Part shown: piece by piece, positions 11,340 to 64,000 of the stretch
How positions within the stretch are numbered: the stretch's first letter is position 1
Layout: each line of letters starts with the position of its first letter
NCBI GenBank assembly: GCA_001793945.1
Contig: MGIW01000006.1
Location: forward strand, 202,239-266,238
Direction: 5' to 3'
Length of the DNA stretch: 64,000 nt
Source of the DNA: Candidatus Wolfebacteria bacterium RIFOXYD12_FULL_48_21
GTDB taxonomy: Bacteria; Patescibacteriota; Minisyncoccia; UBA6257; UBA9933
Notes under the pieces: model-generated
Seen by the model: the letters and a program-made list of their open reading frames with translations, nothing else
Told to the model about the DNA's origin: nothing
The model's database searches: none
Made by a program: the position numbers and the translations under genes

Positions 11340-11393
11340 TTTGTACGAGTAATAAACTCGATACTCTGTATCAGATATTATATAATAAAGCTT

Positions 11394-12009: not shown

Positions 12010-12140
12010 ACACATTTATGACCCTCGCATTGTCATTCCCGTCCTTCGACAAGCTTAGGATAAAACTTCGAGCGGGAATCCAGAGCCTGTGTCATTCCGA
12101 GCGGAGTGGTACTCCATGTAGTCGAGGAATCTGCAGTATT
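12010..12140. repeat. MITE-like hairpin units
   Basis: cattgtcattcccgtccttcgacaagcttaggataaaacttcgagcgggaatccagagcctgtgtcattccgagcggagtggtactccatgtagtcgaggaatctgcag. Confidence 0.7.
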
Positions 12141-14291: not shown

Positions 14292-14321
14292 TTGACAGTT
14301 TATTCATGTGTACGCTATTAT
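14292..14321 (+). promoter_or_regulatory. sigma-70-like promoter TTGACA-18-TATTAT upstream of Phd/RelE pair
   Basis: TTGACA 14292-14297, TATTAT 14316-14321, overlapping gtac...gtac palindrome. Confidence 0.5.
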
Positions 14322-14327
14322 GTACAT

Positions 14328-14687
14328 ATGGATAGCAAGACAACAATTTCAATTTCCGAAGCACGGAAGAAAATATTCGATATTGCCACCGAGGTACAGG
14401 CTCCCGGTAAGCACTATACATTAACTGAAAAAGGCCGACCAAAGGCGGTTATTATGTCTGCCGAAGAGTTTGAATCGTGGACGGAGACCATGGAAATCAT
14501 GCGTGAATTTCCTGACATTAAAAAAGATATTGCCCGTGCCGAGCGGGAATATAAGAGTGGTAATTATATAACCCTTGAAGATCTCTTGGAAAAAGAGGGG
14601 TATGTGTTAGCGGGTAAGACATCTAAAAACTATGCAGTATCGGATCATTCTGCCAAAAAGCGTACAAAAGGAGCTCGAAAAGCTTGA
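14328..14687 (+). CDS. Phd/YefM-family antitoxin
   Basis: ISISEARKKIFDIATEV...HYTLTEKGRPKAVIMSAEEFESWTETMEI is the Phd/YefM fold; unusually long C-terminal extension overlapping the toxin start. Confidence 0.6.
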   Translation: MDSKTTISISEARKKIFDIATEVQAPGKHYTLTEKGRPKAVIMSAEEFESWTETMEIMREFPDIKKDIARAEREYKSGNYITLEDLLEKEGYVLAGKTSKNYAVSDHSAKKRTKGARKA

Positions 14688-14883: not shown

Positions 14884-15150
14884 AAACCCCCCCGCATTGT
14901 CATTCCCGCCCATTCGTCCGCCGGCTGGCGGATCAGGGTAAACTCCGGCGGGAATCCGTGGCCTGTGTCATTCCCGTGAAAACGGGAATCCAGTATCCCC
15001 GCATTGTCATCCCGTGCTCCGACACGGGATCCAGATCATGTGTCATTCCCGTGAAAACGGGAATCCAGTATCCCCGCATTGTCATTCCGGACTTGATCCG
15101 GAATCCAGTATTTGTGTCATTCCCGTGAAAACGGGAATCCAGAGTAGAGG
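14884..15150. repeat. tandem array of MITE-like hairpin units
   Basis: gtcattcccgtgaaaacgggaatccagtatccccgcattgtcat... repeated; includes ccgccggctggcgg core hairpin. Confidence 0.8.
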
Positions 15151-15199: not shown

Positions 15200-15275
15200 A
15201 ACAGATAAGATCCCTCATCCCTGCGGGATTTTTGGTTGGTTTATAAATGGGGTGGGATTTGGTAAGATTGAGTTG
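15200..15275 (+). promoter_or_regulatory. conserved terminator+leader module (copy b): atccctgcgggatttttggttggtttataaatggggtgggatttggtaagattgagttg
   Basis: Hairpin atccc-tgc-gggat plus T-run, followed by a conserved 40-nt tail; related copies at 19725-19770, 20345-20400, 21265-21325 and a partial one at 11965-11995. Confidence 0.6.
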
Positions 15276-15299
15276 TAGTTGAGGTAGTGACGCGTTAAT

Positions 15300-15653
15300 A
15301 TGGAGAAAATCAAAGCACTTACGCAGAAAATTGTTGCATTTCGAGACGAGCGGGATTGGAAGCAATTTCATAACCCCAAAGACGAGGCGTTGTCTTTGGT
15401 TTTGGAAGCAGCTGAAGTTATGGAGCATTTTCAATGGAAATCCGCCGAAGAAATGCAAAAACATGTCACGGATCAAAAGGAGGAAATCGGAGCAGAGCTT
15501 GCAGATGTCTTTTACTGGGTTTTATTAATGAGTCATGATCTCGACATCAATATCGCAGACGCGCTGGAGAACAAAATTAAGAAAAATGCCGAGAAGTATC
15601 CTGTTGAAAAGTCAAAAGGTAGCCATGCAAAATATATCAGGATAGAAAGCTAA
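15300..15653 (+). CDS. MazG-like nucleotide pyrophosphohydrolase (short single-domain form)
   Basis: LTQKIVAFRDERDWKQFHNPKDEALSLVLEAAEVMEHFQWK...ELADVFYWVLLMSHDLDINI...ENKIKKNAEKYP matches the MazG/NTP-PPase fold. Confidence 0.7.
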   Translation: MEKIKALTQKIVAFRDERDWKQFHNPKDEALSLVLEAAEVMEHFQWKSAEEMQKHVTDQKEEIGAELADVFYWVLLMSHDLDINIADALENKIKKNAEKYPVEKSKGSHAKYIRIES

Positions 15654-15670
15654 TAATATTATTGTGATCC

Positions 15671-16462
15671 ATGCCGAGAGAAATTATCATAACAGCAGAA
15701 TACTTTAAGCAATATCGCCGACGGTTGGGGTTTGCCACTCAGGCCGGAGTTAAAAATTTTTTCGGAGCAAAGGACATCGTTCCAGGCGTAGATTTTGATT
15801 ATGTGCAGTATTTAAACGATAGACTTTACGAGATCATTGATCGTATAAATGATGCGTTAGTTGATAGTATAAAGGTTGACAATGTGGACACATTCAAGCG
15901 GGAGCATGTCGATAGGGTTTTTGAAATAATAAAAGATAATAATATTTTGCCCGTATTGAATAATCAAGGAAGGAGACCCGAGGATGTGTACTTCTCTTGG
16001 ATGAGGGGATATGTTATTTCAAATTTATTTTTAAGGGCACTGGAAAGCATATTCGGTGTCGATGCATCGACCATTGAGCTCATCGGCGACGATGATTTGC
16101 GAAGCGTGGAAACTTTTAAGCGAACGCCAAAAGCCGACTTGGAGATTAATCTCGGGGAAAGGGGGCGAATACGAATAGAAATGCAATCGGGCTTTACAGG
16201 AATCAACGACATTAAGCAACATAAAGTCCTTGAGGCAAAAAGAGTTTTTAGTGATATGGGCGTTCATACATTGGCGGTTCATTTTGACCTGTATAACGGC
16301 CAAGCCGCCTTTGTGATGCTCGATGATGTCAGTGAAGATGATGTAAATTGGATTACAAGGCAACAAATGGAGGGACAAACTGTTTTTAACATAGATCAAA
16401 ATAAATTTATCTGGAAGATTACCGAAGATCCGATCAGGTATGCAGACATAATTTTCGAGTAA
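15671..16462 (+). CDS. hypothetical protein, candidate type II restriction endonuclease partnering the C5 methyltransferase
   Basis: 263-aa ORF ending 10 nt before the MTase start; no known motif; call rests on context. Confidence 0.3.
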   Translation: MPREIIITAEYFKQYRRRLGFATQAGVKNFFGAKDIVPGVDFDYVQYLNDRLYEIIDRINDALVDSIKVDNVDTFKREHVDRVFEIIKDNNILPVLNNQGRRPEDVYFSWMRGYVISNLFLRALESIFGVDASTIELIGDDDLRSVETFKRTPKADLEINLGERGRIRIEMQSGFTGINDIKQHKVLEAKRVFSDMGVHTLAVHFDLYNGQAAFVMLDDVSEDDVNWITRQQMEGQTVFNIDQNKFIWKITEDPIRYADIIFE

Positions 16463-16471
16463 GATTTAACC

Positions 16472-17596
16472 ATGGGAAAGATTAAAGTTGTTGATTTATT
16501 TGCGGGAGTGGGGGGATTGAGCTATGGTTTTGCACATGACCCCCATTTTGAAATTGTTGCAGCAAATGAGATATTGCCGAATATGGCAAAGGCTTATTCT
16601 CTGAACCACCCTGGCGTGCGGGTTTACGCCGAGGACATCAAGGATTTTAGTGCAAAAAAAATAGAAAAAGATTTAAAAATAAAACCCTCCGAGATTGATA
16701 TTATCGTGGGCGGCCCCCCTTGTCAGGCCTATTCGACCGTCGGGAAAAGGCTTATTGGCGATCCTCGAGGGCAACTTTTTCAAGAATATTATCGAGTGCT
16801 GAAGGAATTTAATCCAAAGCTTTTTATCTTTGAAAATGTAAAAGGTCTTTTGTCGATGCAAAACGGTGAATTGTTAAAAGCAATCATTGTCTTATTCGAA
16901 TCACTCGGTTACAGGGTTCAGTATAGAGTTTTAAATGCTGCGGATTACGGAGCGCCGCAAATAAGGGAACGGATTATTATTGTCGGATCAAAATTAAAAT
17001 CCGATTTTATATATCCCAAGCAAACCCATTGTGATCCCGTTCGATTGATGGGATTAGCGGGCGCATCTTTAAAGCCTTACCTAACACTTGGAGAGGCTAT
17101 TGGCGATTTGCCTTTTATGAGAAGCGGGGCGGAGAGCTTTGAGTATGCATCGGATCCGCAGAGTGATTTTCAGAGACTTATGCGAAAAGGTTCTCCCGAC
17201 AGGCTGATGGACCATTGCGCGCCAAATAATAATGCTAAGCTGGTTAACATGATGGAGCTTTTGCCCGATGGAGGTACGCCGGAAGATTTGCCCGAGCACT
17301 TGCGGCCGACATCGGGTTTTAAAAATACCTATTGCCGCTTATGGTGGAAAAGGCCTTCGACGACAATAACTAGGAATTTAAGTACACCCTCTTCGTCGAG
17401 GTGTATTCATCCAAAAGCGCCCCGACCTTTGACGACAAGAGAGGGTGCGAGACTCCAATGCTTTCCCGACTCCTATCAATTTTTTGGTTCTCGCAGCGAT
17501 AGAAATCTTCAAATTGGGAATGCGGTCCCAACTTTTTTGGCGAGCGCTATAGCCGCAGCGATTTTAAAAAATTTTAAAGCCGAAGAGCTCATTTAA
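16472..17596 (+). CDS. DNA (cytosine-5)-methyltransferase
   Basis: Motif I DLFAGVGGLSYGF, motif IV GGPPCQAYS, motif VI ENVKGL, motif X-like GNAVP. Confidence 0.9.
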   Translation: MGKIKVVDLFAGVGGLSYGFAHDPHFEIVAANEILPNMAKAYSLNHPGVRVYAEDIKDFSAKKIEKDLKIKPSEIDIIVGGPPCQAYSTVGKRLIGDPRGQLFQEYYRVLKEFNPKLFIFENVKGLLSMQNGELLKAIIVLFESLGYRVQYRVLNAADYGAPQIRERIIIVGSKLKSDFIYPKQTHCDPVRLMGLAGASLKPYLTLGEAIGDLPFMRSGAESFEYASDPQSDFQRLMRKGSPDRLMDHCAPNNNAKLVNMMELLPDGGTPEDLPEHLRPTSGFKNTYCRLWWKRPSTTITRNLSTPSSSRCIHPKAPRPLTTREGARLQCFPDSYQFFGSRSDRNLQIGNAVPTFLASAIAAAILKNFKAEELI

Positions 17597-17717
17597 AAAT
17601 AGACGGATATTTTCTCCAAGGAAAACCGCAGCGAGATATTGGCTGTAGTAAAGGGGAAGGGAAATATGACCACCGAGATTGCCCTGATAAAAATTCTGCG
17701 GGAGGAGAAAATAACCG

Positions 17718-17987
17718 GTTACCGACATGGCAGAAAAGCGTGGCGTAACCGAAACCACGATCATCGCCCATTTGGAAAAGCTGGTTGCCAATGGAACCCT
17801 CGATCCTGCAGCCGATTTGGAATACCTAAAGCCCGAACGCCGACGATTTGTAACTATGCAAGCCGCGCTTGAAAAGACCTACAAAAAGAAGGGGAGCATG
17901 CTATTAACCCCCGCCCAGGCACTCCTTGGGCCTAGTTTTACATTTGAGGAGTTGAGGGTGGCACGGTTGTTTTTAATTACCCCGTGA
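17718..17987 (+). pseudogene. duplicated 3' fragment of the Pif1-like helicase gene (HTH_40 tail), displaced copy
   Basis: MAEKRGVTETTIIAHLEKLVANGTLDPAADLEYLKPERRRFVTMQAALEKTYKKKGSMLLTPAQALLGPSFTFEELRVARLFL is about 95% identical to helicase residues encoded at 13611-13880; lacks the helicase core. Confidence 0.75.
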
Positions 17988-18077
17988 TGAGCGGAGCAGA
18001 TTTTATGGGAGGAGAAAGAGTGGATGAGTTTTTTGAAAATACCTTTTAGCATATTTAGGTAGTTTAACAGCACCTAT

Positions 18078-18110
18078 TGACACCATTATTCATGGTGTTA
18101 TTATTAGTAT
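18078..18110 (+). promoter_or_regulatory. candidate promoter TTGACA-18-TATTAG with caccattattcatggtg palindrome
   Basis: cctattgacaccattattcatggtgttattattagtatgc just upstream of the first small HTH gene. Confidence 0.4.
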
Positions 18111-18145
18111 GCAAGTTAAAAGAAATACTTAATAAAAATAAACAC

Positions 18146-18391
18146 ATGGAAAAATCTGAGGGACTATCTGAACTTAAAGAGCTTAACAAGAAGATTGAGG
18201 TAGTGATTGCTCTGCTTCTTAAAATGTTACCTAAAGATAATCAGGGAATTTCACTTAAAGATCAAATTAAATTGTTGGATAGTCTCCATATTCGGCCAAG
18301 TGAAATAGCTGAAATTATCGGACGAACTCAGAGCTATGTGAGTAAAGAGCTTGTGTACATCCGAAAGGATAAAAAACAAAAAATTAACTAA
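18146..18391 (+). CDS. small HTH protein, paralog 1 of 4
   Basis: MEKSEGLSELKELNKKIEVVIALLL...SEIAEIIGRTQSYVSKEL (sigma-70 region 4 / LuxR-like HTH pattern). Confidence 0.5.
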   Translation: MEKSEGLSELKELNKKIEVVIALLLKMLPKDNQGISLKDQIKLLDSLHIRPSEIAEIIGRTQSYVSKELVYIRKDKKQKIN

Positions 18392-18403
18392 TAATATATC
18401 TAT

Positions 18404-18619
18404 ATGAGTGAAAATGAAATTTTGTCATCAGTGTCAAAAAAGCTAGGAGTTTTAATTGCTTTGAATTTGATGACGCTTAATAGCAAGGCAACTGTAATTG
18501 ACAATGTTGCTCTACTTGATCGTTTTGGTTTATCTACTACTGAAATTTCGGAAATATTAAATACCTCTAAAGGTACGGTCGATGTTACGAAAAGTAGAAT
18601 TAAAAAAGGAAAAAAATAA
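18404..18619 (+). CDS. small HTH protein, paralog 2 of 4
   Basis: ...LGVLIALNLMTLNSKATVIDNVALLDRFGLSTTEISEILNTSKGTV. Confidence 0.5.
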   Translation: MSENEILSSVSKKLGVLIALNLMTLNSKATVIDNVALLDRFGLSTTEISEILNTSKGTVDVTKSRIKKGKK

Positions 18620-18623
18620 TAAT

Positions 18624-18806
18624 ATGGAAAGTAAAGAACTTATTAAAGAGTTAAAATCTTTAAATAAAACAATAAAAGATCAGTTCATCTTCCTTTTATG
18701 CCGAGAAGGTTATACTAAAGAACAAATTAGGATAATTATCGGAAGTATTGATAATACTAGGATAACCCAGATTAGTTCTGGGCTTAAAAAAATAAATAAA
18801 AAATAA
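18624..18806 (+). CDS. small HTH protein, paralog 3 of 4
   Basis: MESKELIKELKSLNKTIKDQFIFLLCREGYTKEQIRIIIGSIDNTRITQISSGL. Confidence 0.45.
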   Translation: MESKELIKELKSLNKTIKDQFIFLLCREGYTKEQIRIIIGSIDNTRITQISSGLKKINKK

Positions 18807-18808
18807 TC

Positions 18809-18979
18809 ATGACGAAACAGAAAGAGCAAAAGTTGGATACTTTGGAACAGATCAAGCGACTACTCATTCTTGCCCTAGTGCATCAAGGTGTCCAAGGGAA
18901 GGATGTTGCTGCGGTGCTCGGCGTTGATCCGGCGGTTGTCAGCCGTATGGTTCCAACTCGGCAAATAAAGAAGAAATAA
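18809..18979 (+). CDS. small HTH protein, paralog 4 of 4 (56 aa, below ORF-track cutoff)
   Basis: Own translation: MTKQKEQKLDTLEQIKRLLILALVHQGVQGKDVAAVLGVDPAVVSRMVPTRQIKKK; same architecture as the other three. Confidence 0.45.
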   Translation: MTKQKEQKLDTLEQIKRLLILALVHQGVQGKDVAAVLGVDPAVVSRMVPTRQIKKK

Positions 18980-18983
18980 TGAT

Positions 18984-19709
18984 ATGGCCCGCCCTCGCAT
19001 CCTTGATTTAAAACTAATGGTAAAAATTGCCAAAAAACTTGGCAAAAAGGATACTATTTCTATAAATAAGATGGTAAGTAGAAAAGCATCAAAACTTGGC
19101 ATATCTGCCGAGTCGGCTTTGATACTTTTAGCGAAGGAGTATGGGATAGGTGCATCTACATATCAGCGTAATCTTGGTGTTACGAAACAAGCGGAGGTGC
19201 GAGATGCATTGCCATCTATTTTTATACAAGCGCGGGCGATGAGTCATGAGAATAAGACAAAAAATAATAGCGAGGTAAAACCGTCTATTAGTAAAAAAAC
19301 AGCACTGAAGCTTACAATAGAGTATTTAATCGAGGATCAGGAATTACGAAGTAGATGTCAGGATATTCTTATGGCTTCTGCAAATTTTGATAGACCTATT
19401 AACCAAGCAACTTTAGTACTTGAGGATAGAATAAGGAAAAAAGCAAAACCTCTTACGAAAATGGTTGGGGAAAATTTAGTGGGGTATGCTTTTAATGAAG
19501 AAATTTCCAAAACAGTTCTTCGCGTTGCGAGTAATGATGCTGATGATCAGCGTGGATTTGCACAAATTTTGAGAGGTATTGTACCTGCATTTCGAAATAA
19601 AACACATCATCATATTGTTGAACATTTTTCTAGAGAAGAGGCAATCAGAGTTTGTGGGTTTATCGATGTTTTGTTACGAGTTGTAGATAATTCTGTAAAA
19701 ATAAAATAA
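18984..19709 (+). CDS. hypothetical protein with C-terminal CHP02391 (Hypoth_Ymh)-like domain
   Basis: C-terminal ...GFAQILRGIVPAFRNKTHHHIVEHFSREEAIRVCGFIDVLLRVV resembles the TIGR02391 family seen in defence contexts; assignment tentative. Confidence 0.35.
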   Translation: MARPRILDLKLMVKIAKKLGKKDTISINKMVSRKASKLGISAESALILLAKEYGIGASTYQRNLGVTKQAEVRDALPSIFIQARAMSHENKTKNNSEVKPSISKKTALKLTIEYLIEDQELRSRCQDILMASANFDRPINQATLVLEDRIRKKAKPLTKMVGENLVGYAFNEEISKTVLRVASNDADDQRGFAQILRGIVPAFRNKTHHHIVEHFSREEAIRVCGFIDVLLRVVDNSVKIK

Positions 19710-19779
19710 GCTTAATAGTCACTCCTGCGGGATTTTTGGTTGGTTTCTAAATAAGGTGGAATTTGGTAAAATTTTAAAA

Positions 19780-20280
19780 ATGCCGTATAAAGATCCAGCA
19801 AAATTTAAGGAGTTAAATTTTTTGTTTAAAGAAATAATAGACCGGATTATGATCGCTGATATCTTGCGATTAAAAGAACTTGACCCACTATTAAGATTTC
19901 ATGGTTCCGAATATTATGGTGGACGCGGGACGACTCCCATGGTTCTTTATATTTTTGTTTGCATGGAATTTTTGGGTTCTTTAATAATGGAAGTTGAAGC
20001 TAAGGGTTCCGGTAGTACACAGAAAAAAGTTTTGGCGTATATGGAGATGACTTTTGGTCCCGATATGGATTTGTTTATTACACACAGAAGGTTGTTTATT
20101 AAATTTTATCGCAACGCATTAGCTCACGGATTTTTTCCTGGAGGAGGGGGTATAAGTCGGGGCGGCTCGCAAGTATTAGGAGTAACAGCGAGAGGGGATT
20201 TAATTCTTGACGCTGATATTTTGCAGATATGTTTGTTAGGTCGGTGTGGCGTTTTAAACGGCTATTTCGTTCTCGGATAG
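19780..20280 (+). CDS. hypothetical protein
   Basis: ORF preceded by conserved module copy c; the ORF-track start at 19756 is a GTG inside the module, so the ATG at 19780 is used; no motif recognised. Confidence 0.35.
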   Translation: MPYKDPAKFKELNFLFKEIIDRIMIADILRLKELDPLLRFHGSEYYGGRGTTPMVLYIFVCMEFLGSLIMEVEAKGSGSTQKKVLAYMEMTFGPDMDLFITHRRLFIKFYRNALAHGFFPGGGGISRGGSQVLGVTARGDLILDADILQICLLGRCGVLNGYFVLG

Positions 20281-20420
20281 GCTTGACTACATATCCTTAT
20301 TTGGTAAATCAAGTTGTCGATAGATTTTTAAAAATACAGCAGAGATAACCCTGATCCTTTATAATTTATAAATGGGTCAGAATTTGGTAAGATTGAGTTG
20401 AAATGGGGTGTAATTATTAA

Positions 20421-21257
20421 ATGGAGAATACAATCGTGGAAATGTTAATACCGCATAATGATCCGAATGGACTTCGGATTATTAAGCTTGCTGGGTGGAT
20501 CGGAAGGGCATTTGTTATTCCTCGTGCAGATATTAAAGAGATAAAAGCATTAAAGGAGGCGAGTCATCCTGCTGTGTATTTTCTTATTGGAGAAGAGGAT
20601 GGTAAGGCAACTGTTTACATAGGACAAACTGATAATTTTGAGCGTCGACTTAATCAGCAGGTGGTAGCAAAAAATTATTGGGATATCGCCATGGTATTTA
20701 CCGGCGAATTGGATATTGATGTTCAATATTTAGAATATATTTGCACAAAAGAAGCAAGAGAGTCTGGTAGATATGAAATAAAAAATGCAACAGGAACGCC
20801 TGGGCGGAATATATCTGATTTTCAACGAGTTGCGAATAATAAGTTTTTTGAAAATATAAAGTTCGTTGTCTCATTGTTAAGTTACCCGATTTTCCAGGAA
20901 GTTCCGAAGGAGCAGCAGGCTGATAAAATCTATCACCTTAAACTTTCGAGGAGTAATGATGTTTTAGGAAGGGGTGCACTGCTTTCAAGCGGTGAGTTTG
21001 TAGTATACGCAGGATCTATGGCTCGAATAGTCGAAGCAAAAAGCTTTCAGGGAAGGAAGGGGTCTGGGCTTCGCAAACAACTTATCGATGAAGGTGTTTT
21101 GCAGAATCAAGATGGTATTTCTTATATTTTTACAAAAGATTATATTTTTGGAAGTCCAAGCGCAGCTGGTTATGTTATCACTGGTATGTCGACAAATGGG
21201 TGGACGAGCTGGAAAGACAAGAATGGAAAGACCCTCGATGAGAATGTGAGGAAATAA
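20421..21257 (+). CDS. GIY-YIG nuclease domain + DUF4357 protein
   Basis: PAVYFLIGEEDGKATVYIGQTDNFERRLNQ (GIY-YIG); C-terminal YIFTKDYIFGSPSAAGYVITGMSTNGWTSWKDKNGKTL (DUF4357-like). Confidence 0.65.
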   Translation: MENTIVEMLIPHNDPNGLRIIKLAGWIGRAFVIPRADIKEIKALKEASHPAVYFLIGEEDGKATVYIGQTDNFERRLNQQVVAKNYWDIAMVFTGELDIDVQYLEYICTKEARESGRYEIKNATGTPGRNISDFQRVANNKFFENIKFVVSLLSYPIFQEVPKEQQADKIYHLKLSRSNDVLGRGALLSSGEFVVYAGSMARIVEAKSFQGRKGSGLRKQLIDEGVLQNQDGISYIFTKDYIFGSPSAAGYVITGMSTNGWTSWKDKNGKTLDENVRK

Positions 21258-21363
21258 CTTGTAAAAATCCCGCATTCCTGCGTGATTTTTAGTTGGTTTA
21301 TAAATAGGGTGGAATTTGGTAAGCTTGGGAGTAATAAAGGTTACCCATGAAATTATTGGAATT

Positions 21364-24978: not shown

Positions 24979-25560
24979 ATGAACCTCAAACCCCTCATAC
25001 AACTGACCATTGCAATTGCAATAGCCGAACTCGCGGGGATCATTGGGTCATTTTTTACTGTGGGTGCTATAGATACTTGGTATGCGGGGATCGTTAAGCC
25101 TGCGTGGAATCCGCCCGCTTGGGTGTTTGGGCCGGTGTGGGTGGTGTTGTATGCGATGATGGGGGTTGCGGTTTGGTTGGTGTGGAGGAAGATGGATTCC
25201 CGGCGCATTGCAAGGAGCGGGGAGATCCTGAAACAAGTTCAGGATGACAATGCAAGCGGGAATGACAAACTAATAAAGGCAGCACTCTGGGTTTTTGGGG
25301 TGCAGTTGGGTTTGAACGCCCTGTGGTCCACCATCTTCTTTGGCTTGCACAGCCCGGGATGGGCTTTTGTAGAGATCGTTCTGTTGTGGGCCGCCATCGT
25401 CGGTACGATCGGCGTGTTTTGGCGCATCTCGAAGCCTGCGGCGTTGCTGTTGGTCCCTTACATTTTGTGGGTCAGTTTTGCAGGGTATTTGAACTACACC
25501 ATTTGGGATTTGAACAAGATCGACGAGCAAATGGTGTTTTGCACTGCCGATGCCATGTAA
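24979..25560 (+). CDS. tspO: TspO/MBR tryptophan-rich sensory protein, carrying an in-frame MITE-derived insertion
   Basis: KPAWNPPAWVFGPVWVVLYAMMG...WSTIFFG...LVPYILWVSFAGYLN; the inserted segment SRRIARSGEILKQVQDDNASGNDKLIK is encoded by atcctgaaacaagttcaggatgacaatgcaagcgggaatgacaa. Confidence 0.8.
   Translation: MNLKPLIQLTIAIAIAELAGIIGSFFTVGAIDTWYAGIVKPAWNPPAWVFGPVWVVLYAMMGVAVWLVWRKMDSRRIARSGEILKQVQDDNASGNDKLIKAALWVFGVQLGLNALWSTIFFGLHSPGWAFVEIVLLWAAIVGTIGVFWRISKPAALLLVPYILWVSFAGYLNYTIWDLNKIDEQMVFCTADAM
25222..25268 (+). mobile_element. MITE-family element inserted in-frame within tspO
   Basis: gatcctgaaacaagttcaggatgacaatgcaagcgggaatgacaa matches the intergenic copies at 30130-30175 and 13895-13925. 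Confidence 0.7.
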
Positions 25561-26614: not shown

Positions 26615-27025
26615 ATGGCGTCATCTATGCAAGAAATGATTAATGTTCCTTTAGTTGGTTCCGCTCCGTGCGGGGCGCCGCTTTTTGCGGAAGAGAATGT
26701 TGAGAAAATGATACCCGTGGCAAAGGAAAAGTTGCAGGGAGGTTTGCAGTATTTCATATTGCGCGCAACCGGGGATTCTATGGATGCGGCGGGGATTAAC
26801 GACGGTGATCTTATTTTGTGCAAGCAAAAGCTGACGGCGCGGGAGAACGATCTCGTCGTCGCGCTGATCGATGATGAAGCTACGGTTAAGGAGTTTCATC
26901 GGGAGGGAGATAAAATTGTGCTTAAACCGCGCTCGACAAATCCGGAGCATCAGCCGCGCTATCTTACCGAAGGAGTGCAGATACAGGGGATCGTGCAGGA
27001 GGTTGTGCGTCCACTTGAGAACTGA
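26615..27025 (+). CDS. UmuD-like S24 peptidase (LexA/UmuD C-terminal domain only, no HTH)
   Basis: Candidate Cys-Gly cleavage site (SAPCGAPLF), catalytic Ser in ATGDSMDAAGINDGD, Lys in DEATVKEF. Confidence 0.65.
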   Translation: MASSMQEMINVPLVGSAPCGAPLFAEENVEKMIPVAKEKLQGGLQYFILRATGDSMDAAGINDGDLILCKQKLTARENDLVVALIDDEATVKEFHREGDKIVLKPRSTNPEHQPRYLTEGVQIQGIVQEVVRPLEN

Positions 27026-27039
27026 TAGAGGGGATACGG

Positions 27040-27230
27040 TATAGGGTATAGGGTATATGGTATAGGGTATGGGAGGGGAGAGGAGAGGAGAGGAGGTATA
27101 AAGTATAAAGTATACGGTATATGGTTGGTATGGGAGAGGAGAGGAGGTATAAAGTATAAAGTATACGGTATATGGTATAGGGTATGGGAGGGGGATTTCA
27201 AATTTCAAATTTCAAATTTCAAATTAAAAT
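27040..27230. repeat. tandem low-complexity repeats (GGTATAGGGTAT-type, GGAGAGGAGAGGAGG, and (GATTTCAAAT)4)
   Basis: Direct duplication ggtataaagtataaagtatacggtatatggt x2; four GATTTCAAAT repeats at about 27198-27230. Confidence 0.8.
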
Positions 27231-27231
27231 A

Positions 27232-27345
27232 CTGGATTCCCGTCGGATCCGCCGGCTGGCGGACCCGTGCTGCGACACGGGGCCCGCAGTTTGGGAATGA
27301 TAGAACTCTGGATACCGGCCTCCGCCGGTATGACAATGCGGGATG
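27232..27345. mobile_element. MITE-like element (ggattcccgtcgg...ccggcctccgccggtatgacaat family)
   Basis: ctggattcccgtcggatccgccggctggcggacccgtgctgcgacacggggcccgcagtttgggaatgatagaactctggataccggcctccgccggtatgacaatgc. Confidence 0.7.
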
Positions 27346-51773: not shown

Positions 51774-53903
51774 ATGACGAACATCATAAAAAAAATCACG
51801 GTCGCCCTTTTGAGCCTCGTTGTCGTAGCGGGTGCTTTTGCGCCGGCTGCAAGCGTACTTGCGGCGACATTCAATAACGATGCGCAGGATTATTCGACGA
51901 TTCAGGTTTCCAACTATACGCGAAACCCGGGAAGCAATGCCAATTGGTCCAATTCCGTTTCCGCAAATGCGGGTGAAATAGTGAGCTTTTTGGCTTACTA
52001 CCACAATACCGCTTCTGATGTCGCGCAGGGAACCACCGTGCGCGTGCAGTTGCCGACGGGCTCGTTTACATCTACGACCGTAAGTGGCGAGGTTCGCTCG
52101 TCCAACGCGGCTTCGGCGACGGGCATTGTTTCCGTCAACCTTTCTTCTACGCAGACATTGACCTATGTACCTGGCTCTTTGAGCTGGTATCCCGATAAAA
52201 GCGCAACTCCGCGTGCATTGTTGAATGGCCAGAATGGAAGCGAAATCGTTTCGAACGGGCTCGTTGTCGGCGATATCGCCGGTGGATGGGCTACTCAAGG
52301 ATATGTAGTGTTCCGTGCGCAGGTGAATAACACCGGCGGCACCGGAACCATTATAACTCCGGGAACGAATGGAGCGGTACCGGCGGCGATAACCAATTCC
52401 GTCTATTCCGTTACGCAAAGTTCCGCAGTGCTGCAGGGAACGGTAAATCCGAACAATGCCAATGCAGTCGCATGGTTTGAATATGGAACGACCCAGTCGT
52501 TCGGTTCTACCGCAGGCAATCAGACCGTTGGCACGGGCAATTCCGCCACGAACATTTCGGGCTACCTGTCCAACCTTTCTCCGAACACGACCTATTACTA
52601 TCGCGCCGTCGCGCAAAATGTATATGGTACCACTTATGGCACCACGATGAGTTTTGCGACCCAAGCGGCCAATTACGGATATGGTTCGAACAACAATGCT
52701 CCGTCCGTATACACCAATACTGCAAGCTCCATAGCCGCCAATTCTATGACCCTTAATGGTTCCGTGAATCCGAACGGCAATGCGACCAATGCATGGTTTG
52801 AATACGGAACGACTCAGTCGTTGGGATATACCGCCGGTTATCAGACCATCGGATCGGGGAATTATGTATCGACATTGACATCGACCGTGTATACTCTTGC
52901 GCCGAACACGACCTATTATTATCGCGCCGTTGCGCAGAACGCATATGGCACGACCTATGGCACCATCATGAGCGTTACGACTGGAGGAACTTCTGTAAAT
53001 AGTTACGGTAATACTCCGTATGTCACGACCCATGCCGCACAATCCGTGTTTCGCAATTCCGCGTTGATCAATGGCAATGTGAACCCGAATGGATCCCTTA
53101 CAACCTCATGGTTTGATTGGGGAACCACGACAGGCTTCGGCAATCGCACCATCGTTATGCCGGTAGGGCAAGCTTCCTATGTAAGCAGCTATTCCGCGGT
53201 ATTGAGCGGATTGCAGGTGAACACGACCTATTACTACCGCGCAGTTGCGCAGAATGCATATGGCACGACCTATGGTAATACATTGAGCCTTACCACAGGG
53301 GGAGCGACCATTATTCCGACGGTCGTGATCGGTACCACTCCGGTGGCACCGCGCGTCATTGTGATACAACAGCCGTCGGAATCCGTTTCAGTTGTCACGC
53401 TGACTCCGTCGATAGATAAAAAGAATCCGAATGCAGGTGATACGGTCGAATATTCGATCCAGTATCGCAACGAATCCAAGAGCCCGATTACCGGCGCAAC
53501 GCTAAAGATCGAGCTGCCGAGTGAGGTAACATTCGAAAGCGCATCATTGCGCGCGAGCACATCGACCGATGGCATGGCCATATTCGATCTCGGCACCATA
53601 GCCGGAAACACACAGGGTGTGATTACTATCAAGGCGACTATCGACCGCAGTGTTGATGCGGATGATGCATTGATCTTTGGCGCGACCATGACCTACACCA
53701 ACGCACAGAAGCAATTCCAGTCGACGACCGCCTATCTGACCGTTGTGGTTGGTTCGGGTGTCGCAGGATTGGCATCGTTGCTGAGCGTTCTCGGTGATTT
53801 GTTCACTAATTGGTTCGTCGATCTCATCCTCGGATTGCTTATCGGTTTCGGTATCTATCATTTCTTCGTACGACAGAAGGAAGAAGAGGTCATCATCAAG
53901 TAA
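51774..53903 (+). CDS. cell-surface protein with three tandem ~107-aa repeats, flanking DUF11-like domains and a C-terminal TM anchor
   Basis: Signal peptide; 321-nt DNA repeats encoding WFEYGTTQS.G.TAG.QT.G.GN...L.PNTTYYYRAVAQN.YGTTYG starting at about 52474, 52795 and 53110; C-terminal hydrophobic helix then KEEE. Confidence 0.65.
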   Translation: MTNIIKKITVALLSLVVVAGAFAPAASVLAATFNNDAQDYSTIQVSNYTRNPGSNANWSNSVSANAGEIVSFLAYYHNTASDVAQGTTVRVQLPTGSFTSTTVSGEVRSSNAASATGIVSVNLSSTQTLTYVPGSLSWYPDKSATPRALLNGQNGSEIVSNGLVVGDIAGGWATQGYVVFRAQVNNTGGTGTIITPGTNGAVPAAITNSVYSVTQSSAVLQGTVNPNNANAVAWFEYGTTQSFGSTAGNQTVGTGNSATNISGYLSNLSPNTTYYYRAVAQNVYGTTYGTTMSFATQAANYGYGSNNNAPSVYTNTASSIAANSMTLNGSVNPNGNATNAWFEYGTTQSLGYTAGYQTIGSGNYVSTLTSTVYTLAPNTTYYYRAVAQNAYGTTYGTIMSVTTGGTSVNSYGNTPYVTTHAAQSVFRNSALINGNVNPNGSLTTSWFDWGTTTGFGNRTIVMPVGQASYVSSYSAVLSGLQVNTTYYYRAVAQNAYGTTYGNTLSLTTGGATIIPTVVIGTTPVAPRVIVIQQPSESVSVVTLTPSIDKKNPNAGDTVEYSIQYRNESKSPITGATLKIELPSEVTFESASLRASTSTDGMAIFDLGTIAGNTQGVITIKATIDRSVDADDALIFGATMTYTNAQKQFQSTTAYLTVVVGSGVAGLASLLSVLGDLFTNWFVDLILGLLIGFGIYHFFVRQKEEEVIIK

Positions 53904-55653: not shown

Positions 55654-57501
55654 ATGGGCATTTTTAATCTCACATCCGAATACGGGCCGTCGGGCGACCA
55701 GCCGGAGGCGATCGAGCAACTGAAGGCAGGGCTTGATCGGGGCGAGCAATATCAGACCTTGCTTGGCATTACCGGGTCAGGAAAAACTTTTACGGTCGCC
55801 AATGTAATCCGGCATTTTAATAAGCCGGTTCTTGTGATTGCGCCAAACAAGGCGCTTGCCGCTCAGTTGTATCGGGAATATAAGAATTATTTTCCCGAGC
55901 ATTCGGTGAATTATTTTGTTTCCTATTACGACTATTATCAGCCTGAGGCGTATATGCCGGGGACCGATACCTATATTGAAAAGGAGGCTATGATCAACCA
56001 AGAGATCGATCGGTTGCGCCATCAGGCTACATCCGCATTGTTGACCCGCAAGGATGTGATCGTGGTCGCGTCGGTTTCGTGCATCTATGGTCTTGGCGTG
56101 CCGATGAATTATTTTGCATCCGCAATCCACTTGGCGGTCGGGCAACAGATCACCCGCGGCGACCTCATCAGCCAATTGATCAAGATCCAATTTACCCGTA
56201 CGGCAGGTGTGTTGAAGCGCGGCGAGTTTCGCGTGCGCGGGGATGTATTTGAAATCATGCCCGCATCCGAGACCATGAGCTATGCGATTGAGCTCGGACC
56301 TGATCAGACCGTTACGGACATCGCGATCATCGATCCGGTGACGCGGACCATGATCGATCACCCGCAGGATGTCGCCCTGTTCCCGCCGAAGCATTTTATT
56401 TCAAGCGCGCCCGAGATTGCGCGTGCGGTAAAGGATATCAAGACCGAGCTGGACGACCGACTTGCGTATTTTAACGAACACAAGCTGTATCTTGAGGCTC
56501 AGCGTTTGGAGCGACGCGTGCGCTATGACATGGAGATGCTGAAGAGCCTCGGTTTTTGTCATGGCGTGGAAAACTATTCGCGCCATTTGAGTGGCAAGCT
56601 TGTCGGCGAAGCACCCGATACATTGCTGGATTATTTTCCGCGCGACAAACAGGGCAAGCCCGACTTTTTGTTGGTCATGGACGAATCTCACATTGGCGTA
56701 CCGCAGGTGCGTGGCATGTACGCGGGCGATCGAAGCCGCAAGGATACTTTGGTGAAATATGGCTGGCGTTTGCCGTCGGCAATGGATAACCGGCCGCTTA
56801 TGTTCAAAGAATTCGAACAGCGCATCGGGCAGACGATCTTTGTGTCGGCAACGCCGGGCGATTGGGAACTGGAACATTCGAAGACCGTCGTAGAGCAGGT
56901 CATTCGGCCGACCGGGTTGATCGATCCGCCTATTACAGTGCGTCCGGTATTTGATAAAGACAAGAACCGCAGTCAGATCATCGATGTCATGGAGGAATTG
57001 CATGGCGTGGTCAAAAAAGGGGAGCGCGCATTGGTCATCACGCTTACGAAAAAGCAGGCCGAGGATCTGAACGATCATTTGACGAACGAAGGATTCAAAT
57101 CGCGCTACATCCATTCTGAAGTAAAGACCTTCGAGCGCACGGAGATATTGATGGATTTTCGCAGGGGAATATTCGATGTGCTGATCGGCGTGAACCTTTT
57201 GCGTGAAGGGCTCGACCTGCCGGAGGTAACCTTGGTCGCCATTTTGGATGCGGACCGGGAAGGGTTTTTGCGCAGTGAAACATCGTTGATACAGACCATG
57301 GGACGCGCGGCTCGGAATGTGAGCGGAACGGTTATTCTGTATGCAGATAAGGTAACGGGTTCCATGCAACGCGCCATGGATATTGTCGACAAGCGAAGAA
57401 AATTGCAAATGGCGTACAATAAAAAGCACGGCATTACGCCGAAGACCATTCATAAGGCCATCGAATACATGCTTGATTTTAGCGGGTCCGCGGGCGAATG
57501 A
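55654..57501 (+). CDS. uvrB: excinuclease ABC subunit B (compact form)
   Basis: PSGDQPEAIEQL, LLGITGSGKTF Walker A, helicase motifs, VLIGVNLLREGLDLPEV. Confidence 0.9.
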   Translation: MGIFNLTSEYGPSGDQPEAIEQLKAGLDRGEQYQTLLGITGSGKTFTVANVIRHFNKPVLVIAPNKALAAQLYREYKNYFPEHSVNYFVSYYDYYQPEAYMPGTDTYIEKEAMINQEIDRLRHQATSALLTRKDVIVVASVSCIYGLGVPMNYFASAIHLAVGQQITRGDLISQLIKIQFTRTAGVLKRGEFRVRGDVFEIMPASETMSYAIELGPDQTVTDIAIIDPVTRTMIDHPQDVALFPPKHFISSAPEIARAVKDIKTELDDRLAYFNEHKLYLEAQRLERRVRYDMEMLKSLGFCHGVENYSRHLSGKLVGEAPDTLLDYFPRDKQGKPDFLLVMDESHIGVPQVRGMYAGDRSRKDTLVKYGWRLPSAMDNRPLMFKEFEQRIGQTIFVSATPGDWELEHSKTVVEQVIRPTGLIDPPITVRPVFDKDKNRSQIIDVMEELHGVVKKGERALVITLTKKQAEDLNDHLTNEGFKSRYIHSEVKTFERTEILMDFRRGIFDVLIGVNLLREGLDLPEVTLVAILDADREGFLRSETSLIQTMGRAARNVSGTVILYADKVTGSMQRAMDIVDKRRKLQMAYNKKHGITPKTIHKAIEYMLDFSGSAGE

Positions 57502-58237: not shown

Positions 58238-60742
58238 ATGGAAGACAAAATAAGCATCAAGGGCGCGCGCGTCCATAATTTAAAGAATATCAACCTCGAG
58301 ATACCAAAAAACAAGTTGGTGGTATTTACGGGTGTTTCGGGTAGCGGCAAATCGTCGCTTGCGTTTGATACCATTTTTGCCGAAGGACAACGCCGGTATA
58401 TCGAATCATTGTCGCCGTACGCCCGACAGTTTTTGGGCCAAATGGAACGCGCCGATGTGGATGAGATTGTCGGCCTGTCGCCGGCCATCGCCATCGACCA
58501 ACGGGCGCTTTCGCACAACCCGCGTTCGACCGTGGGAACGCTGACGGAGATCTATGATTATTTGCGCATTTTGTTCGCGCGCTTGGGTGATGTACATTGT
58601 CCAAATGACGGCACGAAAATAGAAAAATTGTCCGTCGATGAAATGATCGACATCGTAATCGCGCGCGCAAAAAAAGCGAAGCAGAGTATGGTCACCGTGC
58701 TTTCGCCAGTGGTGCGCGGACGCAAGGGGGAGTACTATCAACAGTTGTACGATTATCTTGGACTCGGATTTTCACAGGTGCGCATTGATGGCGTCATGCA
58801 TTCGTTGCACGAAAAGATCGAGTTGTCGCGCTACAAGGAGCATTCGATCGATCTGGTCATCGACAAGGTTCTTTTGACGGATGTCGCGCGCTTGCACGAG
58901 GCCGTTGAAAGCGCACTTGATCAAAGCAAAGGGCTGGCCACCATTTTAATGGGCGAGCAGACGGAAGCTCCGGAGGAGTTCATGCTTTCTTCGAAGTGGA
59001 CCTGTCCGGTGGATAATTTTGTGTTTCCCGATATCGAGCCGCGGCTGTTTTCTTTCAATAGTCCGCATGGCGCATGCGAGACCTGTTCCGGACTTGGCAA
59101 GACCGACCTGTTCTTAAAGACCATCTGCCCCGATTGTAAGGGGAAGCGATTGCGCCCCGAAGCATTGTCCATTCGCATCGACGGGAAAAATATTTATGAA
59201 GTGGCTTCCATGACCAACGCCGATTCGCATGCATTTTTTACGGCGTATGAAAAAAAGATGACCGAGCGTGAAAAAACCATCGCCGCGACCGTAGTAAAGG
59301 AGATCACGGATCGGCTGCACTTTTTACTTGAAGTGGGGCTTGATTATTTGACCATGACGCGCGAAGCGGAAACATTGTCGGGTGGTGAAGCACAGCGCAT
59401 CCGGCTTTCTTCGCAAATAGGCTCCCAGCTTTCCAATACGCTCTATGTGCTTGATGAGCCGACAATTGGTCTGCACGAACGCGATACCGACCGGCTGGTG
59501 GGAATATTAAAGAAACTTAAGGCGCAGAACAACACCGTGATCATTGTCGAGCACGACGAACTGACCATCCTTGAATCTGACCACTTGGTCGACTTCGGGC
59601 CGTTTGCCGGCAAACATGGCGGCGAGGTCGTCGCACATGGCGATACGGCAAAACTGTTGAAGAATCCGGGCGAAATGAACTCCATGACCGTGCAATATTT
59701 GCGTGAAGAACGGAAGATCGCGGTGCCTGAGCGGCGGAGTAAGATAGCCGAAAAGTTGTCGATCGTCGGCGCGACCGCGCATAATTTGAAAAATGTGAAT
59801 GTGGATATTCCGTTGCGCAAGCTGGTGTGTGTTACAGGTGTCTCGGGTAGTGGTAAATCGACTTTGATACAGGATGCGCTGTATGAAAATTTGAATTCGT
59901 TGAAGTCGCGCATGAACGAACCGCTTACGGGCGTCGCGAACATTACCGGTTCCGAATATATCGACCGGGTCATTGCGGTCGACCAGGCGCCGATCGGGCG
60001 CACTCCGCGTTCCAATCCTGCCACTTACACGGGTATCCTTACGCCGGTCCGTGAGTTCTATGCGCAATTGCCCGAAGCGCGCGAACGGGCCTATACCGCG
60101 TCGCGGTTTTCATTCAATGTGGCGGGTGGCCGATGCGAGTCGTGCCAAGGGGCGGGACATAACTTGATCGAGATGCACTTTTTGCCGCCGGTATTGGTGG
60201 AGTGTGAAGTGTGTCACGGCAAGCGATACAACCGCGAAACATTACAGGTAAAGCACAACAAGAAAAGCATCAGCGATGTGCTCGCCATGACCATCGATGA
60301 AGCGGCGGAATTTTTTGACGGCATATGGCAGATTACCGACAAACTGAAGGTACTGCAATCCGTGGGATTGGGTTATCTGCAGTTGGGTCAAAGTGCCACC
60401 ACGCTTTCGGGCGGGGAAGCGCAGCGCATCAAGTTGGCGCGCGAATTGACGCACCCGCTGGGCAAGCGTGTGTTGTATTTGCTCGACGAACCTACCGTTG
60501 GGTTGCATTACTATGATGTCGAACTGCTGTTGACCGTACTGAACAAGCTGGTAGACAAAGGACACTCCGTTGTGGTGATCGAGCATAATATGCACCTCAT
60601 CAAATCGGCCGACTATGTCATCGACCTCGGGCCGGAAGGAGGCGAGCGGGGAGGTTCCATCGTTGCCAAGGGCACGCCCGAAGAGGTCGCCGCAAACAAA
60701 CACAGTATTACCGGCAGTTACCTGAAGCATTTTCTGAAATAA
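58238..60742 (+). CDS. uvrA: excinuclease ABC subunit A (compact form)
   Basis: Two ABC modules ([15 protein letters not shown] and [15 protein letters not shown] Walker A; LSGGEAQRI signature twice), zinc-finger Cys clusters. Confidence 0.95.
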
Positions 60743-62962: not shown

Positions 62963-64000
62963 TATGTCAAATCTTCTCGAACAGGTAAAGCAATTTCCGG
63001 ATAGCCCCGGAGTTTATCGATTCCTTGATGCAAAAGGGGGTATTTTGTATATCGGCAGGGCTACATCGCTGCGCAAGCGGGTGGGGAATTATTTTACCAA
63101 GCGCATCGATGCGCGCATTGCGGAAATGGTATCGCTTGCACGGGATGTGCTGTATGAGCAGACCGATACTGTATTGGAAGCAGTCATCCTTGAGGCTAAC
63201 CTTATAAAAAAGCATTGGCCGAAATACAATGTAAAGGACAAGGACAATCGGTCATTTCTTTATATCGTAATTCCGAAAGCGGGGATAGATTCCCGCCGGA
63301 GTTTACCCCGTGCTGTGACACGGGGCCCGCAATTTCGGAATGACAGAGGGGGCTCGGCCGATTATCCGAAACCGCTCATCGTGCGGCATCGTGAATTGGA
63401 AAAGTTTTCCGCGGTCAAGGCGGATATCTTTGGACCGTATCAAAGCGTTACATTGATCAAAAACGCATTGAAGATCATTCGCAGAATATTTCCGTACGGC
63501 ACCTGTACGCCCCATAGTGCCTCTGTAAAGTCGCCGGCGGGCGACCGCGTTGCAGGTAAGCCCTGCTTTGATTATCAGATCGGATTGTGCCCGGGTGCAT
63601 GTGTTGGGGCTATTTCAAAAAAAGAGTATCAAAAAAATATTCGCAACATTGTACTCCTGTTGTCGGGTAAAAAGGAGCTGCTGCTCAAGCGGCTTGCCAA
63701 GGCGCATCCTGAAAAGGCGGTGAGCTTGAAGCATATTCAGGATGTTTCATTGATCACGCGGGACGAACTGGTGCGCAGACAGGTGGACGCGCATCGCATC
63801 GAAGGATATGACATATCGCATTTGACCGGTAAGGAAACATATGGCTCGATGGTCGTGTTCACCGATGGTGAACCAGACAAGGAGGCCTATCGGTTGTTTG
63901 CCATAAAAGAAGCCGTGGCGGGCGACGATTTGCATGCACTCGAGGAAATGCTGGTGCGACGATTTCGCCACGCAGAATGGGACATGCCCGATTTGGTCAT
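62963..64000 (+). CDS. uvrC: excinuclease ABC subunit C (N-terminal part, runs off window), with in-frame MITE insertion
   Basis: Own translation: MSNLLEQVKQFPDSPGVYRFLDAKGGILYIGRATSLRKRVGNYF (GIY-YIG)...EANLIKKHWPKYNV..., Cys-rich region, then continuous reading frame to the window end; not in the ORF track because there is no in-window stop. Confidence 0.85.
63286..63352 (+). mobile_element. MITE-family element inserted in-frame within uvrC
   Basis: gatagattcccgccggagtttaccccgtgctgtgacacggggcccgcaatttcggaatgacag closely matches the intergenic copy at 27232-27300; encodes IDSRRSLPRAVTRGPQFRNDR inside UvrC. Confidence 0.7.

Follow-up and report, generated by a model that had tools for sequence, protein, structure and literature searches.

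The window analysed here, a 64-kb stretch of 64,000 nucleotides on contig MGIW01000006.1 from Candidatus Wolfebacteria bacterium RIFOXYD12_FULL_48_21, a minute bacterium of groundwater, runs at its right end into the 5' part of a uvrC gene, and within this gene lies a 78-nt segment that has the make-up of a hairpin repeat dispersed over the same window and that keeps the frame of the surrounding codons (Table 1). The encoded UvrC has Pfam domains GIY-YIG at residues 14-88 and UvrC_RNaseH at residues 274-344, its 5757 homologous matches are mostly Patescibacteria UvrC proteins of ~385-390 residues, and the GIY-YIG catalytic residues and the Cys residues are invariant in the ortholog alignment (A1). 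UvrC proteins of this clade, as represented by window positions 62964-64000 and the ortholog P0001, are short with ~390-425 residues and stop directly after the RNase H-like domain. Besides the latter, Pfam recognises only GIY-YIG and UvrC_M in them, neither a UVR nor a helix-hairpin-helix domain being matched. Since uvrB and uvrA are both intact, the excision-repair set is complete, and the uvrB/uvrA gene order of the window is matched in relatives. In general, uvrC is not known as an essential gene, and the description of its product as an essential repair protein in the original prediction, which had been made from the sequence of this window, is not supported.

Table 1. Positions of uvrC, of the in-gene and intergenic repeat copies and of associated features in the 64-kb window
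Feature	Coordinates	Strand	Basis and remarks
uvrC coding sequence, 5' part	62964..64000	+	ATG 62964; 345 codons; runs off window end; open reading frame and translation, Pfam, homologs
In-frame insertion in uvrC, 78 nt	63281..63358	+	2-nt ambiguity at the junction; from comparison with empty sites in orthologs, protein alignment A1 and DNA junctions (L004, L010)
Core repeat element of uvrC	63288..63346	-	canonical orientation TGTCATTCC-GAAATTGCGGG-CCCCGTGTCACAGCACGGGG-TAAACTCCGGC-GGGAATC; long composite family variant
Inner 7-bp hairpin of uvrC copy	63306..63325	.	CCCCGTG-CTGTGA-CACGGGG; DNA folds; sole strong stem remaining
Host codons V-I-P-K	63267..63278	+	GTA ATT CCG AAA, just 5' of insertion point; site DNA comparison
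Identity block, 133 nt	63250..63382	.	identical to uvrC of RIFOXYB1_FULL_54_12; genes otherwise 91.0% identical; permutation P ~1e-4
Second in-frame palindromic insertion in uvrC, 36 nt	63519..63554	+	nested; ASVKSPAGDRVA; between Cys181 and CxxxQxxxCxxxC cluster (Cys201)
Intergenic long-form copy	27233..27304	-	nearest relative of uvrC copy within window; followed by short copy 27311-27335
tspO (TspO/MBR family)	24979..25560	+	with in-frame insertion of same hairpin family; Pfam 6.9e-53
Nested pair of family hairpins in tspO	25195..25267	-	inner unit 25224-25249; translated as DSRRIARSGEILKQVQDDNASGND; TM2-TM3 loop; fold z = -4.2
Two head-to-tail arrays	13918-14160, 14898-15142	+	short and long members; flank Phd/YefM-like gene
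Two more arrays	11112-11281, 12031-12131	+	flank NYN-domain gene, precede PIF1-like helicase gene
uvrB	55654-57501	+	Pfam; intact; upstream of uvrC
uvrA	58238-60742	+	Pfam; intact; upstream of uvrC

The uvrC insert and its hairpin repeat family

The uvrC frame continues unbroken from its start codon through the segment to the window end, and the segment is located between the GIY-YIG domain and the downstream Cys cluster (C181...C201), both as originally described. When measured against empty orthologous sites, its extent amounts to 78 nt and 26 residues beyond orthologs, which replaces the initial estimate of ~67 nt and ~22 residues. Including a split Ala codon, the insert encodes AGIDSRRSLPRAVTRGPQFRNDRGGSA. 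The window UvrC and the 95% identical P0001, encoded in Candidatus Wolfebacteria bacterium RIFOXYB1_FULL_54_12, read IVIPK-AGIDSRRSLPRAVTRGPQFRNDRGGSA-DYPKP, as compared to IVIPK-[A/T]-DYPKP without insert in most Patescibacteria orthologs (alignment A1), and the predicted junction-spanning peptides of an insert-bearing UvrC are ...IVIPKAGIDSR and FRNDRGGSADYPK.

The claimed likeness to an intergenic copy is borne out as well. A 22-mer of the uvrC core is found at exactly two places in the window, in uvrC and at 27267-27288, with 0.00 expected from shuffles, and the uvrC copy has 41 nt in common at 90% identity with the intergenic long-form copy (repeat family D20). Both ends and the inner module of the uvrC copy are also present in this intergenic copy (27235-27302), and its 3' 21-mer GGGTAAACTCCGGCGGGAATC has an exact match in the copy at 14898. 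Because of the 22-mer, 41-nt and 21-mer matches, the repeat resemblance is real and not due to chance.

The family comprises ~27 units in the 64 kb, all counts being from the window, which is part of a roughly 0.9-Mb genome, and its members have the common termini TGTCAT(T/A)CC...GG(A/T)ATC(CAG). The canonical unit corresponds to TGTC-ATTCCCGN-loop-NCGGGAAT-CCAG. Short units of 25-28 nt, such as TGTCATTCCCGTGAAAACGGGAATCCAG, contain an 8-bp stem, a 4-nt loop and the CCAG tail, and long units of 42-73 nt contain added inner hairpin modules. The family is mostly intergenic, with only two loci within genes, and several units begin 12-15 nt past a stop codon, as is the case for those following the stops at 30090 and 33416. 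Searching the window against Rfam retrieved tRNAs only.

The insertion site in relatives, reading frame and predicted structure

Alignment of orthologs reveals a lineage-specific indel that coincides exactly with the repeat. Among database orthologs, 67 of the 105 that could be parsed have the modal segment length and only ~6 contain an insert at the IPK/DYP junction, and 70 of 74 metagenomic orthologs are empty at this site. At the DNA level, empty sites are provided by the related loci L004 (...CCAAAAACT/GATTATCCG) and L010 (...CCCAAAGCC/GATTACCCT). The window and L006 have the 78-nt insert, while the closest relative, the sister L001 (95.1% DNA identity), has an insert of 45 nt with the same extended flanks and a canonical 28-nt hairpin with the core GATTCCCGC-TTTC-GCGGGAATGAC. 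Further states are a 39-nt insert in L005 with other flanks and a core of another subfamily (CCGGCCTCCGCCGG), a degenerate 45-nt copy in L007 and a 12-nt remnant in L008. On folding, the inserts of L001 and L005 each give a clean 8-bp hairpin, and the long form of the window retains the inner 7-bp hairpin only. Insert junctions exhibit microhomology of only 1-2 nt and no consistent target-site duplication, and insert-bearing uvrC genes occupy at least three separate positions in a neighbour-joining tree. The host codons V-I-P read GTCAT(T/A)CC, the element's own 5' terminus, in L005, L007, L008 and L010, and the antisense strand carries GTCATTCC in every in-gene copy seen. Target mimicry via host V-I-P codons reading GTCATTCC is left as a speculation, since the tspO site described below has no such motif.

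Copies of the family are found in the flanks of the clade loci (L001, L002-L004 and L005) and are essentially missing around uvrC in ~75 other Patescibacteria loci, and orthologs from genomes without the family do not carry the insert residues, so that the refuting condition named in the original prediction does not apply. The near-absence of the family outside the repeat-bearing clade, together with the lack of these residues in outside orthologs, argues for an insertion rather than a native loop. It could still be held that the residues form a native lineage-specific loop of UvrC, with a coincidental likeness to the repeat or with intergenic copies derived from a uvrC fragment, and the window copy does fold weakly and departs from the canonical unit. 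However, this is highly improbable in view of the 22-mer match with zero expected, both terminal motifs and the exact 21-mer, the perfect canonical unit at the same codon in the sister genome and the variants of other subfamilies at this position in other relatives, and it is already contradicted by the residues missing from orthologs outside the repeat-bearing clade. A scan of metagenome contigs for a close uvrC strain yielded nothing nearer than 79% identity, its 80 loci serving as a negative control for the family. A scan of genome contigs with the 24-nt long-form core retrieved only the uvrC gene of RIFOXYB1_FULL_54_12 and no new copies, and when the insert peptide of 30 residues, a query too short to inform, was searched against 1.84 billion representative proteins, only a spurious repeat protein was returned.

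The lengths of all five uvrC-site inserts (78, 45, 39, 45 and 12 nt) are multiples of three, and substitutions relative to the 91.0%-identical gene fall at codon position 3 in 23 of 28 cases upstream of the insert and in 44 of 65 cases downstream (p = 1.6e-8). The third-position bias, the lengths divisible by three and the invariant key residues show that the frame passes through the insert, with purifying selection on both sides, and argue for its translation. Mis-assembly of a repeat into uvrC, or decay of the gene into a pseudogene, might be invoked for a metagenome-assembled source, repeats being classic mis-assembly sites, but there is next to no likelihood of either, as three assemblies made independently from different data sets contain the same in-frame insert, the third-position bias extends to both sides and the catalytic residues are conserved. 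Overall, we place the probability that the uvrC segment is a repeat copy inserted in frame and translated at about 0.85. The 133-nt identity block shared with RIFOXYB1_FULL_54_12 comprises the insert and ~30 nt of host sequence per side, with the same flanks present in L001, and possible explanations are short-patch recombination spreading the insertion allele or a constraint at the DNA level.

Mapping onto solved structures, which had been proposed, is precluded at this site, because the solved UvrC N-terminal domains (1YD6, 1YCZ) stop at ~residue 99, just before the insert site, and solved fragments resume at the RNase H-like domain. For this reason, an AlphaFold2 model of the full-length ortholog P0001 was used (101 homologs, mean pLDDT 84.9). 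In this model, a strand at 119-124 (LYIVIP) is followed by the insert at 126-152, with pLDDT below 50 across 137-149, and by a second strand at 158-161. The insert is hence predicted to form a low-confidence loop that caps a beta-hairpin directly following the GIY-YIG nuclease domain.

Further in-gene copies and the class of the repeat

The uvrC gene contains a second in-frame palindrome, in the Cys region, whose consensus in relatives is CCCCGTAAAGTCGCCGGCTGGCGACCACGTGGCAAG. On the basis of alignment A1, DNA comparison and folds, it is present in the window, L006, L004 and L005 and absent in the sister L001, L007, L008 and L010, hence scattered over the tree, with one copy only in the window. 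Other repeat-like peptides are found in the Cys region of many Patescibacteria UvrCs, marking it as a general hot spot. In tspO, a nested pair of family hairpins is translated within the loop between transmembrane segments 2 and 3 (TM2-TM3), as placed by alignment to mouse TSPO (2MGY) and by the ortholog alignment A3. The tspO product of the window has 100% identity to a protein of Candidatus Wolfebacteria bacterium RIFOXYD12_FULL_48_21. The modal TspO has 158 residues and no insert, and 7 of 121 orthologs have the signature [LIMV]DS[RG]...[RG]ND[KRN] at this loop. At the DNA level, this loop is empty in L095, contains one hairpin in L094, two in tandem in L093, two decayed ones in L092 and the nested pair in the window. 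The Cys-region palindrome, the tspO pair and the loop turnover identify in-frame insertion as a general behaviour of the family, and the varied states of uvrC and tspO in relatives indicate that loops holding one copy accumulate and exchange copies, as intergenic arrays do.

An adaptive insertion would alter UvrC activity or partner binding, for example with a mutator or repair-modulating phenotype, an idea proposed by Di Nocera et al. (PMC3733652), who had noted that REPs are over-represented in UvrABCD, RecBCD and polymerase genes. The perfect conservation of insert and flanks between two genomes 9% diverged elsewhere in uvrC and the two separate hot spots in UvrC are compatible with it. However, same-site inserts are highly variable in both sequence and length and most relatives have none, the same repeats occupy a loop of the unrelated membrane protein TspO, the insert is predicted to be disordered, and in the sister lineage L001 the second insert is lost and the first one reduced in length, so that adaptation seems improbable. 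The uvrC insert is thus most likely a tolerated selfish passenger and not an adaptation.

By sequence, the family fits a REP-type hairpin of the CGTC-1/dRS3/NTS-like class. As described by Di Nocera et al. (2013, BMC Genomics 14:522, PMC3733652), CGTC-1 elements have a (C/T)GTC tag (CGTC, often TGTC or CCTC), an 8-bp stem that starts with AT and encloses a loop of 4 nt, and a tail with the consensus CCA. In the window, almost every unit, that in uvrC among them, has the tag TGTC, with GGTC at 13918, and the 8-bp AT-initiated stem with a 4-nt loop is present in short copies, such as ATTCCCGT-GAAA-ACGGGAAT. This stem and loop are also found in the uvrC copies of L001 and L005, whereas in the window uvrC copy the outer ATTCCCGC/GCGGGAAT stem is down to ~5 bp in DNA folds and surrounds ~40 nt of inner sequence. 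Most copies have the tail GGAATCCAG, containing the CCA consensus feature, and uvrC copies end with CTA. High copy number and a mostly intergenic location near gene 3' ends are further CGTC-1 traits of the window family, as are clustering, the lack of a flanking transposase and the presence of some copies in frame within genes, those of nucleotide excision repair in particular. The window family differs from the published CGTC-1 elements in its host, as the phyla covered were Proteobacteria, Chlorobi, Bacteroidetes, Spirochaetes and Thermotogae, with Patescibacteria not among them (PMC3733652), in its head-to-tail arrays as compared to the predominant head-to-head dimers (PMC3733652), in the long composite variant of the window uvrC copy and in the gene concerned, since the genes named in the main text are uvrA and uvrB, with 'uvrC' not found there (PMC3733652).

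A close similarity to the Neisseria repeats is also apparent. With the NTS criterion of at most one mismatch to the consensus CGTCATTCCCGCGMAVGCGGGAATCYRG, the copies at 2066 (TGTCATTCCCGCGCAGGCGGGAATCCAG) and 13918 match with 1 mismatch each, and the Ssn-related motif (SRM), HGTCWYN(0-2)YYVSBRHN(0-5)WNVSBRGN(0-2)RNCYNB, is matched by 6 window units as compared to 0.3 in shuffles. The L001 uvrC copy matches the SRM and has 2 mismatches to NTS, and the window uvrC copy fails the SRM because its loop is too long. Features common to Neisseria dRS3/NTS and the window family are thus a near-identical 28-nt sequence (copy at 2066), an oriented hairpin and clusters around particular genes. NTS has been linked to SsnA, a GIY-YIG nuclease of small size for which the hairpin is a target of binding and cleavage in single-stranded DNA only, and the ssnA gene typically has the repeats on its flanks (Nat Commun 2025, PMC11893778). 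In contrast, the 64-kb window has no Ssn-like gene, a transformation-limiting role has been shown in Neisseria only, and intragenic or in-frame copies and Patescibacteria are not discussed in that report (PMC11893778).

The original prediction had labelled the segment a copy of a MITE (miniature inverted-repeat transposable element) and had considered its behaviour to be Rickettsia-like and rare elsewhere. In-frame insertion of a dispersed hairpin repeat stands, while the MITE label was rejected in favour of a REP type, since terminal inverted repeats of 15-30 bp and a consistent target-site duplication are missing and canonical units have only 25-28 nt. Unit ends are asymmetric (TGTC.../...CCAG), and the junctions of four independent variants share no common duplication. 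Bacterial MITEs (Correia/NEMIS, ERIC, RUP, Nezha) resemble the window family in being small non-autonomous repeats that are at times intragenic and in frame, but they have 70-300 bp, terminal inverted repeats of 15-30 bp and target-site duplications, none of which are seen here. Assignment to GTAG REPs and their RAYT transposases was equally rejected, because no GTAG tag is present and the Y1_Tnp gene of L005 is flanked by TATCGTCTTGCGATGACGATAA-type palindromes instead. GTAG REPs/BIMEs are similar in being short GC-rich hairpins in clusters and at gene 3' ends, with a proposed single-strand hairpin mechanism, and differ in the tag and in that no RAYT gene is flanked by the window family.

With respect to Rickettsia, in-frame palindromic repeats are classic for this genus (Ogata et al. 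2000, 2002), and Rickettsia palindromic elements (RPEs) and the uvrC/tspO copies are alike in being in-frame palindromes within conserved proteins, at fold-compatible positions, with variable presence and empty sites among relatives. RPE-1 differs by its size of ~100-150 bp and by encoding a conserved peptide, as compared to units of 25-28 nt (78 nt for the composite) in another phylum here. CGTC-1 has been equated with Neisseria dRS3 and Rickettsia RPE-6, and CGTC-4 with RPE-4 (Di Nocera et al. 2013, PMC3733652), and the analogy is therefore apt and arguably concerns the same element class, with the link of RPE-6 to the window family resting on this equation of CGTC-1. The suggested rarity is overstated, as in-frame REPs of the GTAG and CGTC types were reported in several phyla, many of them in UvrABCD and other repair or recombination genes, with R. 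conorii uvrB, Thioalkalivibrio uvrA and O. terrae uvrA as examples, and mutator effects of the REP excess in UvrABCD, RecBCD and polymerase genes have been speculated upon (Di Nocera et al. 2013, PMC3733652).

Additional repeats and rearrangements were observed elsewhere in the window. The intergenic arrays bracket single genes, namely the NYN-domain gene at 11394-11879, the PIF1-like helicase gene at 12170-13894 and the Phd/YefM-like gene at 14292-14687, and a duplicate of the initial ~33 nt of the helicase gene is found upstream of the NYN gene, at 11310-11342. This pattern suggests a cassette-like rearrangement at arrays, recalling Neisseria intergenic mosaic elements. A 266-nt direct repeat with 88% identity connects 13601-13866, the 3'-terminal part of the gene for the PIF1-like helicase, with 17709-17974. 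Satellite-like tandem repeats with 7/14-nt periods (CATCTCC/CACCTCT and GGTATAG types, TTCAAA runs) are found in the intergenic regions 2623-2806 and 27010-27230 and adjoin repeat copies. A 36-64-nt direct repeat (TTTATAAATGGGGTGGGATTTGGTAAGATTG...) precedes several genes within 15207-21332, where it may represent a shared promoter or cassette boundary, and the genes of this island include a C5 cytosine methylase (16472-17596), a Hypoth_Ymh protein, a GIY-YIG-like DUF4357 protein (20421-21257) and an 815-residue protein without Pfam match. The open reading frame at 51774-53903, with 709 codons, contains three tandem coding repeats of 315-321 nt (72-83% identity) at 52470-53296 and encodes a repeat-domain protein.

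Proposed origin, mobility and implications

We propose that this Candidatus Wolfebacteria lineage acquired a REP-type copy, inserted between uvrC codons K105 and D, in a recent ancestor. Surviving versions being free of stops and multiples of three, the ribosome would read through, and UvrC would gain a flexible charged loop of 26 residues (IDSR...RNDR). The insert would subsequently have been remodelled in place, with the sister lineage L001 keeping the canonical 28-nt hairpin and the window having a long composite built from modules of other copies. A change from the long to the short form by simple deletion between direct repeats was rejected, since its product would not match the L001 core. 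Because its outer stem is decayed, the window uvrC copy is probably no longer mobile. As for the spread of the family, it may have occurred via single-stranded hairpin intermediates handled in trans by an enzyme encoded elsewhere, together with gene conversion between copies, existing copies attracting further copies or conversion. A candidate mobiliser would be an Ssn-type GIY-YIG single-stranded DNA nuclease such as that linked to NTS repeats, and this mobilisation step is tentative.

The main rival to mobilisation by an enzyme is template switching during replication, or gene conversion, acting alone at a hairpin-prone site and writing in the copy, with further conversion accounting for changes between short and long forms. 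The absence of a consistent target-site duplication, the junctions with 1-2 nt microhomology only, sister genomes with identical extended flanks and differing cores, the long form as a mosaic of modules from other copies, the 133-nt identity block around the insert and the report that CGTC REPs lack a dedicated transposase (Di Nocera et al. 2013, PMC3733652) all point in this direction. However, ~27 copies per 64 kb and regularly spaced head-to-tail arrays are left unexplained by it, NTS-type repeats have an associated hairpin-specific single-stranded DNA nuclease in other phyla (PMC11893778), and conversion and transposition are not mutually exclusive, so that conversion or template switching as the whole explanation appears somewhat unlikely.

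Several points weigh against the proposal of an inserted, translated and formerly mobile copy. The window uvrC copy falls outside the canonical definition, with a stem of ~5 bp, a loop of ~40 nt and a fold z-score of -1.0 to -1.1. No small GIY-YIG (Ssn-like) gene was found in the 64-kb window or the fetched loci, the only other GIY-YIG-like open reading frame of the window encoding a 278-residue DUF4357 protein that is not repeat-flanked. The sole Y1 transposase observed nearby, that of L005, was rejected as mobiliser, as it is flanked by an unrelated palindrome (TATCGTCTTGCGATGACGATAA). No empty-site relative with at least 90% identity was found among database homologs and metagenome contigs, and recent mobility is hence not demonstrated. 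Independent gains at one codon boundary and a single old gain followed by precise losses or core replacement are inseparable, and either may apply. Translation and retention of the insert are deduced from DNA, and the placement in a loop depends on a structure prediction whose confidence is low precisely over the insert. As a separate observation, the Y1_Tnp (IS200/RAYT-like) gene of L005 (3040-3890, 230 residues) adjoins the uvrC neighbourhood, and because of its different flanking palindrome family it looks like a separate system of REP/RAYT type.

A more far-reaching reading, which we regard as unlikely, takes protein loops of these Wolfebacteria as self-renewing landing pads, in which a first NTS-like hairpin would recruit further copies, with core swaps and precise losses, leading to the single, tandem, nested and composite states of close relatives. 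The allele would also cross species by short-patch recombination, in line with the 133-nt identity block, and all these events would be driven by an Ssn-type hairpin-specific single-stranded DNA nuclease. If true, CGTC/NTS repeats would actively diversify protein loops throughout Patescibacteria and would not be fossil passengers.

In literature searches, no description of in-frame translated hairpin repeats from the Candidate Phyla Radiation was found. Excision-repair genes have been known to contain in-frame REPs since 2013, and what is new is their extension to Patescibacteria, with the additional features, as judged from sequence comparison, of one codon boundary being reused, turnover in place and a repeat near-identical to Neisseria NTS. 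The oddity of selfish hairpin repeats translated within conserved proteins is thereby extended to the Candidate Phyla Radiation, and Rickettsia RPE-6, Neisseria dRS3/NTS and CGTC-1 REPs are tied to one sequence class in a very distant phylum. In practical terms, peptides of the [LIMV]DS[RG]...[RG]ND[KRN] type in Patescibacteria proteins are derived from repeats, and masking them is advisable when proteins are aligned, placed in phylogenies or modelled structurally. Near relatives differ at the UvrC and TspO hot spots, where sites may be empty or contain single, tandem, nested or composite copies, and these hot spots constitute a tractable system for the study of repeat movement, a question made testable by the recently described Ssn nucleases.

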